From the IMG/VR virus record IMGVR_UViG_2690315994_000027, positions 1-13,542 of that record: a stretch of DNA of 13,542 nucleotides. One strand, 5' to 3'. Every line of letters starts with the position of its first letter. Positions within the stretch are counted from its first letter, which is position 1. Shown in pieces: positions 2,165 through 9,168 of the stretch. The DNA is from a virus. Taxonomy: Duplodnaviria; Heunggongvirae; Uroviricota; Caudoviricetes. Made by a program: the position numbers and the translations under genes. The notes under the pieces were generated by a model, which saw only the letters and a list, made by a program, of their open reading frames with translations, searched no databases and had not been told where the DNA came from.

Positions 2165-2353
2165 TCACGAGGACAGAAGTTTCTCGCAATTAAAATTTAT
2201 CAGCTTTACTTTCTGCTCTCTGGACACGCCTGCTTCTTTTTTCCCTGAGAGCATTTTTTCGCATTCTGATTTCGTTAATTTAGATTTTGAATATCTTGTC
2301 CAGTTAGTAGGAGTGCCACCTTCTTTTTCAATAGTGGCAGTAATTTTATACAT
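2165..2353 (-). CDS. Small basic hypothetical protein (62 aa), translationally coupled to lar (position of Rac ydaC)
   Basis: ATG at 2351-2353 lies inside the lar 3' end (ATGTATAA overlap) with GGAGG 5 nt upstream; the track's longer 86-aa version starts inside lar in another frame. Confidence 0.5.
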   Translation of the reverse strand: MYKITATIEKEGGTPTNWTRYSKSKLTKSECEKMLSGKKEAGVSREQKVKLINFNCEKLLSS

Positions 2354-6524: not shown

Positions 6525-6695
6525 TTAAAGTTCGTGTGCCATCTGGTCTTTTTCGGCACAGATTTCACTACAATATTTTTTCATTTCCGTCGTTGGTATA
6601 ACTCCACGCATGAAATGAAGTGGTCTTGTAATGATTTTGCTTTCTTCAATTTCTTTATTGCAAAGGTGATAAGCACATTTTATTTTCTTAGTCAT
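6525..6695 (-). CDS. ydaE: YdaE-like small 4-Cys protein (56 aa), not in the supplied ORF track (<60 aa)
   Basis: Hand translation of the minus strand: [56 protein letters not shown]; the ATG overlaps the kilR stop as TAATG; GGAG 8 nt upstream; Cys at 7, 12, 42, 46. Confidence 0.6.
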   Translation of the reverse strand: MTKKIKCAYHLCNKEIEESKIITRPLHFMRGVIPTTEMKKYCSEICAEKDQMAHEL

Positions 6696-6916
6696 TACCA
6701 TGACTCCGCCTTTACAGGTAAACCATCACGACCGAGGAAGACTCTAATCATGCAGTCAGAAATGCATGTTTTTGTAGTCAGGCTACGAATATAAAGTTTT
6801 CGCTTTTTAATATTGTTTGCCGAGGCGATATATGTCCGACCTTCATGAAGAACATAATCGCCAGGGGTCACACACTGACGTGGTATTTCATCAGTTCCGA
6901 AGTGATGAGCAATCAT
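6695..6916 (-). CDS. kilR: KilR (Rac killing protein, cell division inhibitor)
   Basis: 73 aa from [46 protein letters not shown]...; matches my recollection of KilR; GGAGAT 6 nt upstream of the ATG at 6916. Confidence 0.8.
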
Positions 6917-7081
6917 AATTATCTCCATTTTTACAAATGAATTTTGTCGATGCGGTGCCTGGTGCCTCCAGGTGACGTTAACCAGTTAACAATTAACGCC
7001 GGATAATCCACCCATAACACTGATGCTTTTAACTGTGCTGCGTGCGCTTAGCCGCATTCACCGCATCACAAAATTCACTTT

Positions 7082-7125
7082 AAAAAGGGGCGGCAGGGCA
7101 GCCACGGAGTAGAACTGATGCCGCC
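7082..7125 (-). terminator. Possible weak terminator for leftward transcription (tL-like)
   Basis: On the minus strand: GGCGGCA ... 23-nt loop ... TGCCGCC then CC and T5 (plus A5 at 7082-7086). Long loop and CC spacer make it weak. Confidence 0.25.
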
Positions 7126-7250
7126 AAAGACTACACATAGCAATTGTCGTTATTTACAACCGGAGGCGCACTCCCACCATTTAAATTTAACAGACAAGAC
7201 CGACTCTTTATGAATACCGGAAATGCGCCTTCGTGTTGTGCGCCTGTCTT

Positions 7251-7312: not shown

Positions 7313-7507
7313 ATGGATAATAAAGACAAAGCCTGGCTACTTGCTTTAGCTTTCAGCATCAGATCGCAGCGAGAAACAACTCATCAAGAATTTTTCTCGG
7401 AAATCGAGAATGCTGAGAATGAGTTTTTGTCACTACTCAATGAACGTGATGCTAAAAAAAGCGCCGATTCACTTAAGGCTTGGGCGAAACTAGGCTCTTC
7501 AAAATAA
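7313..7507 (+). CDS. Hypothetical 64-aa protein, opposite orientation to the surrounding leftward operon (position occupied by sieB in Rac/lambda)
   Basis: ORF with its own predicted promoter and a modest RBS; protein-like composition; no recognised motif. Confidence 0.4.
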   Translation: MDNKDKAWLLALAFSIRSQRETTHQEFFSEIENAENEFLSLLNERDAKKSADSLKAWAKLGSSK

Positions 7508-7691
7508 TTGCTTCTGTAGCGGCATGAACAACTGTTTTTGCCGCCTCTTCAACTTCCTTGTCTGGACGACCAGCCTTTACTTTTTCTGCAATGACATCCA
7601 GCACAGTTGGAAGAACCTTGCTAATAAGCATGGCTGCCACATCTTTGCTGCACAATTGACCGTTAATAACAACCAGATCTTCACCAACCAT
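7473..7691 (-). CDS. Hypothetical 72-aa protein, first gene downstream of the predicted leftward early promoter
   Basis: ATG at 7691 with AAGGGG and 7-nt spacing; A/V/E/K-rich composition; the track's longer version begins with TTG at 7748. 3' end overlaps the convergent 64-aa ORF by 35 bp. Confidence 0.4.
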   Translation of the reverse strand: MVGEDLVVINGQLCSKDVAAMLISKVLPTVLDVIAEKVKAGRPDKEVEEAAKTVVHAATEAIILKSLVSPKP

Positions 7692-7865
7692 CTTTTTTCC
7701 CCTTAACGCCGGGTGGCGGAACGTTTTATCTACTGCGCTTTGTATCAATCAACAACTGCCGTCATGTTCGTATGCCTCAGGCTGGCTACTTAGCCCTGTT
7801 CAGTGGCTGGATAACTCGAGGAATTGTCCAGCCGTTCTCTGGTGGGGCGTTGTTTGGATATGCTT

Positions 7866-7894
7866 ATTAAACACAATACGTTTTCTTATGTCAA
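7866..7894 (-). promoter_or_regulatory. Predicted leftward early promoter (pL analogue)
   Basis: Minus strand: perfect -35 TTGACA (plus 7889-7894), 17-bp spacer, -10 TTTAAT (plus 7866-7871); overlapped by two copies of the operator-like motif. Confidence 0.5.
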
Positions 7895-7907
7895 CACGAA
7901 ATGTGTT
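7870..7907. promoter_or_regulatory. Two operator-like 15-bp sites (OL analogue), centres 23 bp apart
   Basis: AACACGAAATGTGTT at 7893-7907 (palindromic arms AACAC/GTGTT) and AACACAATACGTTTT at 7870-7884; same motif and spacing as at the rightward promoter. Confidence 0.45.
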
Positions 7908-7936
7908 TTGTGGTGGATGTCATATGATGATGGTAC

Positions 7937-7960
7937 AAAAAAGCCCGCTGATAGCGGGCT
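7937..7960 (-). terminator. Intrinsic terminator of the repressor gene
   Basis: Stem GCCCGCT 7943-7949 / AGCGGGC 7953-7959 with 3-nt loop; on the minus strand followed by T6 (plus A6 at 7937-7942); 32 nt downstream of the repressor stop. Confidence 0.7.
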
Positions 7961-7990
7961 GATTGGCATATTACTGTGATAGCAAGATCA

Positions 7991-8410
7991 TTACTCCGGT
8001 GGGGGATTATCTTTAAGCCTGCCTCTCAAATATTTTTCTACATACTCATCGATTTCTTTTAGCCGGACTTCAAATAGCTCAATCATTCGTTGTTGTTCTG
8101 AGCCCGGTAGCTGGTTAAACAACTCAAGAAGTTTTCGTTGGGATTCATTTAACCACAATTCAGAAGATTCCTGTTCTCCAAAGAGGAGCTCAGGAGGAGA
8201 TATGCCAAGTGCCTTTCCCAATACGACAGCGTCATGCACTCCAACATTTCTGCTGCCCGCCTCATAGTTACCTATACGCGATTGCGTCCATCCGCAGATT
8301 TCAGCAAGTTTTCCTTGAGATAAACCAAGCTTCTGCCTGCGCTCTTTAAGACGCATTGCAATTTTGTCATTGAGCCTACTAGCGGCAATTTTTTCGTTTT
8401 CTTTTTCCAT
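7991..8410 (-). CDS. Phage repressor, XRE/Cro-C1-type HTH, no S24 peptidase domain
   Basis: 139 aa; HTH segment LKERRQKLGLSQGKLAEICGWTQSRIGNYEAG; divergent from the Cro-like gene; no Ala-Gly / Ser...Lys autocleavage module recognisable in the C-terminal half. Confidence 0.85.
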   Translation of the reverse strand: MEKENEKIAASRLNDKIAMRLKERRQKLGLSQGKLAEICGWTQSRIGNYEAGSRNVGVHDAVVLGKALGISPPELLFGEQESSELWLNESQRKLLELFNQLPGSEQQRMIELFEVRLKEIDEYVEKYLRGRLKDNPPPE

Positions 8411-8421
8411 TGCATCCTTGT

Positions 8422-8436
8422 ATCACGAATCGTGAT
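8422..8436. promoter_or_regulatory. Perfect 15-bp palindrome ATCACGAATCGTGAT in the repressor leader
   Basis: 7-bp arms around a central A; 12 bp upstream of the repressor start codon; different sequence from the AACAC-type motif. Confidence 0.45.
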
Positions 8437-8444
8437 TTACATAA

Positions 8445-8488
8445 AACACAAAACAGCTTGACCATATAACACAAGATGTGTTTAAAAT
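8445..8488 (+). promoter_or_regulatory. Predicted rightward early promoter (pR analogue) with two operator-like sites (OR analogue)
   Basis: -35 TTGACC 8458-8463, 17-bp spacer, AT-rich -10 region 8481-8488 (TTTAAAAT); near-perfect palindrome AACACAAGATGTGTT 8468-8482 in the spacer and a weaker copy AACACAAAACAGCTT 8445-8459, centres 23 bp apart. Confidence 0.5.
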
Positions 8489-8506
8489 TGTCATCGGAGG
8501 TTTTCA

Positions 8507-8749
8507 ATGAACAAAATTTCAACATATCGAAAACAGCTTGGGCTGTCTCAAAGACAACTTGCTGTTCAGTTAGGGTGGATACAAAGCCGACTGGCAAATT
8601 ACGAAGCAAATTTTCGTACCCCTGGACTAGAGGAGTGCAGAAAAATTGTTTCTACCCTTAATCGGCTTGGCGCTCATTGTGGACTTGACGATGTATTCCC
8701 CCCAGACGGTAAGCATAGCGAAAACAGCATAGGAGCGGTTGATTCATGA
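8507..8749 (+). CDS. Cro-like HTH (XRE family) protein, 80 aa (YdaS-like position)
   Basis: HTH segment YRKQLGLSQRQLAVQLGWIQSRLANYE; GGAGG 6 nt upstream of the ATG; divergent from the repressor; stop overlaps the next gene start (ATGA). Confidence 0.8.
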   Translation: MNKISTYRKQLGLSQRQLAVQLGWIQSRLANYEANFRTPGLEECRKIVSTLNRLGAHCGLDDVFPPDGKHSENSIGAVDS

Positions 8750-9168
8750 AAATCAGGCATGAGCACATCGAATCAGTGTTGTTAGCCCTGGCAGCCGAAA
8801 AAGGGCAGGCGTGGGTCGCTAACGCAATTACTGAAGAATATCTGCGCCAGGGGGGCGGCGAATTGCCCCTTGTACCAGGCAAGGACTGGAACAATCAGCA
8901 GAATATCTATCACCGTTGGTTGAAAGGTGAAACGAAAGCGCAAAGGGAAAAAATTCAGAAACTGATCCCTGCGGTTCTGGCAATTCTTCCGCGCGAGCTG
9001 CGTCACCGACTCTGCATCTTCGATACCCTGGAACGCCGTGCATTACTGGCGGCGCAGGAAGCGTTGAGTACGGCAATTGATGCGCATGATGATGCAGTCC
9101 AGGCCGTTTACCGGAAAGCACATTTCAGCGGTGGTGGGTCGCCCGGTGATTCTGTGGTGGTGCATTGA
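8746..9168 (+). CDS. ydaT: YdaT-like protein (140 aa), positional and reported functional analogue of lambda CII
   Basis: MKIRHEHIESVLLALAAEKGQAWVANAITEEYLRQGGGELPLV...; length and sequence match my recollection of Rac YdaT; ATGA coupling to the Cro-like gene. Confidence 0.75.
   Translation: MKIRHEHIESVLLALAAEKGQAWVANAITEEYLRQGGGELPLVPGKDWNNQQNIYHRWLKGETKAQREKIQKLIPAVLAILPRELRHRLCIFDTLERRALLAAQEALSTAIDAHDDAVQAVYRKAHFSGGGSPGDSVVVH

Follow-up and report, generated by a model that had tools for sequence, protein, structure and literature searches.

What do the short palindromes on either side of a phage repressor gene do in the viral record IMGVR_UViG_2690315994_000027 of IMG/VR? The 13,542 base pairs (bp) analysed here, which we call the window, are a Rac-like lambdoid prophage of Escherichia coli located beside yebY and the ryeA/ryeB small RNA (sRNA) locus. 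In the immunity region, a repressor gene on the minus strand and a cro gene on the plus strand, both encoding HTH_3 proteins, diverge with 96 bp between them. A sequence-only reading had recognised a 15-bp motif in two pairs, one at the leftward and one at the rightward early promoter (pL and pR), and had taken the pairs as left and right operators (OL and OR) bound cooperatively by one repressor. We found five such sites, three at OR and two at OL, and these are very probably the operators of a lambda-type immunity switch. Judged from sequence, they overlap the promoters and flank the divergent repressor and cro genes, as OL and OR should, and to that extent the earlier interpretation is supported. 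The sites, compared with the consensus AACAC-N5-GTGTT, and the two genes are listed below.

7870-7884: OL1, AACACAATACGTTTT, one consensus and one degenerate half-site, within the pL spacer
7893-7907: OL2, AACACGAAATGTGTT, perfect palindrome and exact match, abutting and overlapping the pL -35
7991-8410, minus strand: repressor gene, 139 amino acids, HTH_3 with a C-terminal helical hairpin
8422-8436: OR3, ATCACGAATCGTGAT, perfect palindrome, second base of each half off consensus
8445-8459: OR2, AACACAAAACAGCTT, a single consensus half-site (left AACAC), right half AGCTT with 3/5 bases wrong
8468-8482: OR1, AACACAAGATGTGTT, perfect palindrome and exact match, within the pR spacer
8507-8749, plus strand: cro analogue gene (YdaS-like), 80 amino acids, HTH_3

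The left cluster reads AACACATTTCGTGTTGACATAAGAAAACGTATTGTGTTTAATAAG on the minus strand and the right cluster AACACAAAACAGCTTGACCATATAACACAAGATGTGTTTAAAATTG on the plus strand. The four motif sequences quoted by the sequence-only reading stand where it had placed them, and its pairing at 23 bp from centre to centre holds at both promoters. The sites start at 7870 and 7893 in OL (a 23-bp step) and at 8422, 8445 and 8468 in OR (steps of 23 and 23 bp). The chance level was taken from 200 dinucleotide shuffles of the window. Exact AACAC-N5-GTGTT was found twice, at 7893-7907 and 8468-8482, against 0.03 expected, and none of the 200 shuffles reached two. The repressor gene is flanked by these two exact copies, one in either adjoining intergenic region. 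OL1 is the sole match in the window with one mismatch. A weight matrix was built from the sites of four relatives only, with none from the window, and its five best hits in the whole 13.5 kilobases (kb) are the five sites (OL2, OR1, OL1, OR3 and OR2, in ranks 1 to 5). OR2 departs from the consensus at 3/10 specified bases, all in its right half, and lies exactly 23 bp from both OR1 and OR3; this position supports it despite its chance-level score.

The picture of paired copies mirrored at two promoters needs amendment in two respects. A pair is indeed present at each promoter, but OR holds a third site, 8422-8436, which had been overlooked. The layout is the same at both promoters, but the strength of the sites is not mirrored, since the perfect site is proximal at pR and distal at pL. 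A third OL site was also sought; its best candidate, 7917-7931, was rejected with 5/10 mismatches. An Rfam scan of the operator regions returned no family, and the only sub-threshold hit, Trp_leader at 27.5 bits, was just the terminator hairpin behind the repressor gene.

Comparison with relatives supports the operator assignment. The window was set in one alignment with two variants from E. coli and one relative from Salmonella, the latter with a repressor of 84% identity. In these four copies the consensus half-sites varied at 0/40 positions, the central N5 at 12/25 and the other intergenic positions at 40/93 (half-sites versus all other positions, Fisher p = 7.5e-9). OL2 has fixed half-sites and a variable centre. 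OR1 occurs as AACAC-AAGAT-, -AAGGT- or -AAATT-GTGTT, and its centres within the immunity type, read on the repressor strand, are ATCTT, ACCTT, AATCT, AATTT and ATCCT. The ATCAC/GTGAT halves of OR3 are the same in Salmonella, with a different centre. In OL1 the AACAC half is unchanged in the relatives, whereas the opposite half reads GTTTT in the E. coli copies and GATAT in Salmonella. The degenerate OR2 is identical in the Salmonella relative and shows one change, C8454->T in the central N5, in one E. coli variant.

The same architecture was found in heteroimmune relatives, with repressors 57-66% identical, from Citrobacter, Dryocola, Pectobacterium, Kosakonia, Enterobacter, Klebsiella, a contig labelled Sphingomonas and a second Salmonella type. 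Across relatives with repressors 57-84% identical, OR contains three 15-bp sites (5-N5-5) 23-25 bp apart, and two OL sites stand around TTGAC(A/T) wherever the contig extends past the repressor gene. The outer bases of the half-sites are specific to the group (AACAC, GACAC/GCCAC or TTCAC/CTCAC), and the OR and OL of one phage always agree. The operator groups coincide with differences in how the recognition helix of the repressor begins (GW[TA]QSR, GWATASR or GWSG[AS][SP]R); with only three groups, this correlation is no more than suggestive. In the reverse direction, IMG/VR was scanned on DNA alone for AACAC-N5-GTGTTGACA, which is OL2 with the -35 hexamer, and the matches were compared with the repressor helix motif [ST]R[ILV][AGS]NYE. 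There were 121 matches, many of them expected by chance, and 26 had an open reading frame (ORF) for a repressor with the helix motif within 2.5 kb on the expected strand. A further CAC-N5-GTG site lay 490-1136 bp upstream, where OR is expected, in 25 of these 26 loci, and a cro-type ORF with the motif lay on the opposite strand in 21. With OL, repressor and OR together as the query, 153 of 5,426 complete E. coli genomes carried the module, each with at least 80% matched in one place, and a partial module was found in none. The ydaT flank is common to 1,515 genomes.

The sites coincide with the predicted promoters, which we placed by eye and by comparison with the relatives. The promoter elements, including those of the repressor's own promoter pRM, and the terminator are as follows.

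7866-7871, minus strand: predicted pL -10, TTTAAT, 17 bp from TTGACA, overlapping OL1 by 2 bp
7889-7894, minus strand: predicted pL -35, TTGACA, perfect, 2 bp in common with OL2
7942-7960, minus strand: strong intrinsic terminator, 8-pair stem (6 GC pairs) followed by a T run, 3' of the repressor gene
8417-8422, minus strand: predicted pRM -10, TACAAG, its first T being the last base of OR3
8440-8445, minus strand: predicted weak pRM -35, TTTATG, 3/6 consensus, a 17-bp spacer back from the -10, touching OR2
8458-8463, plus strand: predicted pR -35, TTGACC, its first 2 bp being the last 2 bp of OR2
8481-8486 or 8483-8488, plus strand: predicted pR -10, TTTAAA (17-bp spacer) or TAAAAT (19-bp spacer)

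Good sigma-70 hexamers at both pL and pR uphold the claim that the motifs overlap these promoters. The pL -35 is invariant in the four-copy alignment, and the relatives place the same TTGAC(A/T) beside the distal operator. The TTTAAT of pL is likewise unvarying among the four diverged copies; TAATAA at a 19-bp spacer is an alternative. OL1 fills the 17-bp pL spacer. On the other side, OR1 fills the pR spacer and reaches into TTTAAA/TAAAAT, and the relatives carry TTGAC(A/T) at the position of the pR -35. The terminator separates the repressor transcript from the pL operon, and an equivalent hairpin with a T run is present in the relatives.

The nature of the repressor bears on how such a switch might work. 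A Pfam scan of its 139 amino acids returned helix-turn-helix (HTH) families only and no Peptidase_S24 match. BLASTP against K-12 DicA gave 29% identity over 129 amino acids (E = 2e-15), a full-length homology. The NCBIfam DicA profile NF007257 scored 57.2 bits, under its cut-off of 101, with residues 15-133 aligned to profile positions 4-131 of 135. Homology to K-12 RacR was rejected (BLASTP E = 2.0). An AlphaFold model (predicted local distance difference test, pLDDT, 85) contains a five-helix HTH domain with the recognition helix at 43-51 (QSRIGNYEA), and helices 89-99 and 103-133 form a C-terminal hairpin. The closest PDB folds by Foldseek are C.AhdI, P22 c2, 434 repressor and SinR, in the HTH only, and no informative PDB match was returned for the hairpin. 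By sequence, the repressor is a distant, two-domain homologue of DicA, predicted to be without a LexA-type cleavage domain. More distant relatives (loci L011-L020 and L022, near 2400-2900) keep the C-terminal LFxQLPxxEQ...RLKEIDEYV with an unrelated N-terminal HTH, ISKADMARIAGVTPQAVNGWF, and palindromes of other 5-N5-5 types, TAAAC-N5-GTTTA for example, are present in many of their intergenic regions. The hairpin at the C-terminus has the look of a portable module.

OR3 sits in the pRM spacer and -10, and the distance from its end to the repressor ATG is conserved. In 21 distinct rows, one of which is a cro-fusion ORF rather than a repressor, this distance is 11 nucleotides in 11, 12 in four and 13 in one; the remaining five have 5-6 nucleotides, measured either to an in-frame ATG closer to OR3 or in the cro-fusion ORF. 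The hexamer that begins at the last operator base starts with TA in all rows but the cro fusion (TAAAAA, TAAAAT, TAAAAC, TAAAAG, TAAAGT, TAGAAT, TATAAA, TAATTT and TATTTT; TACAAG in the window), and many of the 11-mers between OR3 and ATG contain no Shine-Dalgarno sequence. The pRM -10 is thus predicted at -12 to -7, with transcription probably starting at the A of the ATG (8410) to give a leaderless messenger RNA (mRNA). With +1 at 8410, the centres of OR3, OR2 and OR1 fall at -19, -42 and -65 of pRM. The operator centres of lambda pRM are at about -19, -42 and -66. This lambda-like geometry suggests activation from OR2 and autorepression from OR3. The PaaR2 and lambda cI mRNAs are reported to be leaderless (PMC8630535).

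These features can be combined into a mechanism. A dimer of the repressor would insert its two recognition helices (43-51) into successive major grooves, one on each AACAC half-site; with 10 bp between the centres of the half-sites, both helices would lie on one face of the DNA. With O1 in the spacer between -35 and -10 and touching the -10, and O2 23 bp upstream and abutting the -35, RNA polymerase would be excluded from pL and pR. Silencing of pL would cover the 72-amino-acid ORF, DicF, kilR and recET, and silencing of pR would cover cro, ydaT and the replication genes. Repressor at OR2 would activate pRM, and repressor at OR3, over the pRM -10 and spacer, would shut pRM off. Cro would bind the same sites and flip the switch. 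Since the repressor has no autocleavage domain, induction would be expected to depend on an antirepressor, the route shown for DicA and for the repressors of the Gifsy phages (PMC10448788, PMC3121763).

The second element of the proposal, cooperative binding, is inferred from the pairing of weak and strong sites at the fixed 23-bp step. At each promoter a perfect palindrome is coupled with a site that has one good half, and their fixed step of about 2.2 helical turns argues for pairwise cooperativity, which may run through the C-terminal hairpin. The retention of the weak OR2 between E. coli and Salmonella, with one central change amid drift of its flanks, is the usual signature of a cooperative site and argues in the same direction. 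Alternatively, the operators could be genuine and the dimers bind independently, the 23-bp step just covering the -35 and the spacer with the -10, without cooperativity or looping between OL and OR. We consider this unlikely. The spacing does vary in the relatives (22-25 bp at OL, 23-25 bp at OR), which a strict helix-face requirement might not allow; yet the steps of the lambda operators themselves are 24 and 23 bp. The modelled C-terminal domain is a two-helix hairpin only, and a related Gifsy repressor was a simple dimer by gel filtration (PMC3121763), whereas PaaR2 of the analogous switch in CP-933P is reported to octamerise (PMC8630535).

Whether one repressor is the only protein that reads these sites is a separate question. 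The positions of the sites and their conservation support the earlier assignment of OL and OR to the repressor, but its restriction to one protein probably does not stand. Over the HTH, Cro and repressor share 45% identity, and their recognition helices barely differ (GWIQSRLANYE in Cro and GWTQSRIGNYE in the repressor), so Cro is expected to share the sites and more than one protein would be involved. From its ATG on, the window cro matches the cro of phage pPE4 base for base, and the cro of E. coli CM2010-0578/1 is nearly identical. In both loci the repressor is a different one (helix GWSGSSRIANYE) and the operators of OR and OL are of the CTCAC/TTCAC type (L002 4674-5040 for pPE4 and L154 250-1110 for CM2010-0578/1, compared with 8395-8760 of the window). 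In both, the recombination joint falls at the cro ribosome-binding site, and the operators there are CTCAC/TTCAC-N5-GTGAG/A. The window cro is present in 162 genomes and the repressor block in 153. A one-to-one code between helix and outer bases holds for the repressors, in three groups only, and was rejected for Cro, because the Cro proteins of L026, pPE4 and L154 share the window helix but face TTCAC/CTCAC. Either Cro reads only the CAC-N5-GTG core, or the pPE4 and CM2010-0578/1 loci are mismatched recombinants. It is conceivable, as a tentative proposal, that specificity is split, the repressor reading the outer two bases (AA, GA, TT/CT) and Cro only the invariant CAC-N5-GTG core. If so, heteroimmune prophages could share one Cro, and cross-talk would be possible in which the Cro of one prophage acts on the operators of a heteroimmune co-resident.

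Downstream of cro lies a second regulator with a recognition site of its own.

8739-8756: YdaT box, TTGATTCATGAAAATCAG, at the cro/ydaT junction, 1 mismatch to TTGATT-N6-AATCAA, with the ydaT ATG in its spacer
8746-9168, plus strand: ydaT, CII analogue, YdaT_toxin PF06254 at 43 bits, 95% identical to K-12 Rac YdaT

Matches to the YdaT box with at most one mismatch were found twice in the window (8739-8756 and 2116-2133) against 0.06 expected. Experimentally mapped YdaT boxes of Rac in K-12 and of CP-933P have nearly the same sequence and location, and drive reverse transcription toward the repressor gene (PMC11879457, PMC9986795). By analogy, 8739-8756 is likely to be where a pRE-like promoter, directed back into the repressor gene, is activated. 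Both boxes are near-perfect (TTGATT-N6-AATCAG); the second (2116-2133) lies just upstream of xis/int and may be an analogue of pI.

The palindromes might be mainly sites for Cro or for another regulator such as YdaT, with the 139-amino-acid protein reading something else. That Cro has the same QSR..NYE helix, that an identical Cro stands beside operators sharing just the CAC-N5-GTG core, and that YdaT footprints the repressor-ydaS intergenic region in K-12 Rac (PMC11879457) would fit this view. It is nevertheless very improbable: the outer half-site bases change together with the repressor and not with Cro, and OL sites are found downstream of the repressor gene in every relative, also in mEp213, which has a homologous DNA-binding domain. 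The mapped YdaT box, moreover, is a different sequence and is located elsewhere in the window. That the palindromes are chance, non-regulatory by-products of AT-rich promoter DNA is scarcely credible and already contradicted by the comparative data: OR2 alone is within chance expectation and about 5 exact matches to the 10 specified bases are expected per 5-Mb genome, but two exact copies where 0.03 are expected, both in the intergenic regions flanking the repressor gene, steps of exactly 23 bp, invariant half-sites with variable centres, and an architecture that recurs across genera with altered sequence all speak against it.

Several points weigh against our assignment of the five sites to a lambda-type switch. 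A generic promoter scan called none of pL, pR and pRM as placed; the pR -10 is ambiguous between the 17-bp and 19-bp spacers, and the predicted pRM hexamers (TTTATG, TACAAG) are weak. OR2 alone is at the chance level, 0.72 sites of its weight-matrix score being expected per shuffled window. The correlation between helix and operator covers only three groups and fails for Cro. As to cooperativity, GfoR is reported as a dimer and PaaR2 as an octamer, and the mode of the relatives is therefore not transferable. As to induction, LexA boxes (CTGT-N8-ACAG) occur at the chance level in the window, and no antirepressor gene is recognisable in it, the window stopping at 13.5 kb, soon after the replication genes; the antirepressor module of Gifsy lies 1.3 kb downstream of the replication genes (PMC3121763).

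The proposed switch resembles several characterised ones and differs from each. DicA/DicC of Qin in K-12 has a short two-domain repressor of similar length (DicA 135 amino acids versus 139) with a shared C-terminal LELFNxLPxSEQ helix, a divergent small Cro-like gene, palindromes in the intergenic region and, beyond the 3' end of the repressor gene, a second pair that surrounds a TTGACC -35. The leftward operon of Qin carries DicF and a cell-division inhibitor, as it does here. DicA has no RecA cleavage site, and an antirepressor lifts its repression (PMC10448788). In contrast to the window, the Qin operator is TGTTAG-N6-CTAACA (18 bp, not the 15 bp of AACAC-N5-GTGTT), the recognition helix differs, and the right operon of the window is of the Rac type (ydaS-like, ydaT).

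Experimentally characterised homologues of this circuit are PaaR2/YdaS/YdaT and RacR/YdaS/YdaT (PMC8630535, PMC9638921, PMC11879457). In CP-933P of O157:H7, a non-cleavable HTH repressor faces YdaS and then YdaT, with operators at OR and OL, a leaderless repressor mRNA and a YdaT box at the ydaS/ydaT junction, all as in the window, where the leaderless mRNA is predicted. Binding of PaaR2, YdaS and YdaT has been demonstrated experimentally there (PMC8630535, PMC9986795). Its repeats have the consensus GTTTAGTAA in four 18-bp palindromes (PMC8630535), unlike the 15-bp sites here, and PaaR2, which was compared by description, is co-transcribed with the paaA2-parE2 toxin-antitoxin pair, absent here. 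K-12 Rac has the same backbone as the window (YdaT 95% identical, recET, kilR, ralR), nearly the same YdaT box, and also three operators in the repressor-ydaS intergenic region (PMC9638921). The RacR operator, however, is (T/A)TAGGC-N3-GCCTA(T/A) (PMC9638921), and RacR is unrelated to the repressor here. GfoR, GfhR and GtgR of the Gifsy phages of Salmonella, compared by description, are short lambdoid repressors that are not cleaved; small antirepressors under LexA control inactivate them, and the authors of that work group DicA and RacR with them (PMC3121763).

Lambda itself shares with the window the divergent repressor and cro genes, O1 and O2 over pR, O3 over pRM, a leaderless repressor mRNA (predicted here) and a site for a CII-type activator at the cro/cII junction. 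It differs in its 17-bp sites (15 here), in three OL sites instead of two, and in the S24 autocleavage domain that the window repressor lacks; CII is replaced here by the unrelated YdaT. The distance between OL and OR is about 2.3 kb in lambda and about 0.55 kb here. In mEp213 (L031 1394-2300), the DNA-binding domain of cI is 58% identical to that of the window repressor, and only that domain is shared. Its OR and OL have the same operator class, (A/T/C)CAC-N5-GTG(T/A)(T/A), with steps of 22-24 bp, but three sites at OL as well as at OR, compared with two at OL here. The mEp213 cI has 213 amino acids and is annotated as LexA-family (S24-type), the phage encodes an N antiterminator, and both AACAC and ATCAC occur among its half-sites. 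One DNA-binding domain thus appears to be joined to two induction domains, SOS-cleavable in mEp213 and an antirepressor-type C-terminus here. A published description of the mEp213 operators was not found in the literature searched.

The setting of the switch is that of a Rac-like prophage, with the order, from left to right, int, xis, ralR/RalA, recT, recE, kilR, a DicF homologue, the immunity region, ydaT and ydaU/ydaV-type replication genes. YdaT is 95% identical to that of K-12 Rac but the repressor is unrelated to RacR, which argues that a Rac backbone acquired a different immunity cassette. The features of the pL operon nearest to the switch are given below.

6695-6928, minus strand: kilR, assigned by Kil protein family phrog_294 and by the annotation of a 99% identical locus
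7088-7139, minus strand: DicF sRNA homologue, Rfam 60.9 bits, gathering score 48
7473-7692, minus strand: 72-amino-acid ORF, first gene of the pL operon

With DicF and kilR in the pL operon, OL would control cell-division inhibitors, as DicA does at dicBp in Qin. A 64-amino-acid ORF on the plus strand (7313-7507, phrog_22868) lies inside this leftward operon, convergent with the 72-amino-acid ORF and overlapping its 3' end by about 35 bp. The untranslated pL leader (7692-7860, minus strand) contains conserved blocks, AGTAGCY-GCC.G.GGCATACGAA, CGCAGYAG and AACGTTCCGCC-N3-4-GGCG, with a possible long-range GGCGG/CCGCC pairing. The leader is common to heteroimmune relatives from Salmonella, Klebsiella, Citrobacter, Dryocola, Enterobacter and Kosakonia, its 3' block is also found before ydfA in Qin, and it matched no Rfam family. 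At the left end of the window, the host sRNA pair SraC/RyeA and SdsR/RyeB (463-607) directly adjoins the prophage integrase gene (735-1811), with yebY (1-342) further to the left, which places the prophage at the ryeA/ryeB-yebY locus. The ralR toxin gene has a full-length RalA antitoxin sRNA (2169-2347, plus strand, 221 bits) opposite it, an arrangement also found in K-12 Rac.

A prior description of the AACAC-N5-GTGTT operator was not found in the literature searched, the coverage of which was incomplete; the analogous systems described above were found. The well-supported conclusion is that of an ordinary lambda-type switch with an operator sequence of its own, a correct operator assignment and no new principle. 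It supplies an operator consensus and a full promoter and operator map for an immunity type present in about 3% of complete E. coli genomes (153/5426), whose carriers include O157:H7, O145, O121, O103, O111 and O55 strains. In these prophages the switch would keep a copy of the DicF sRNA, KilR and RecET silent, and the map makes their repression, cross-immunity and induction directly testable. The AACAC, GACAC and TTCAC variants form a natural series of repressor helices and operators, in which the evolution of HTH specificity may be studied.

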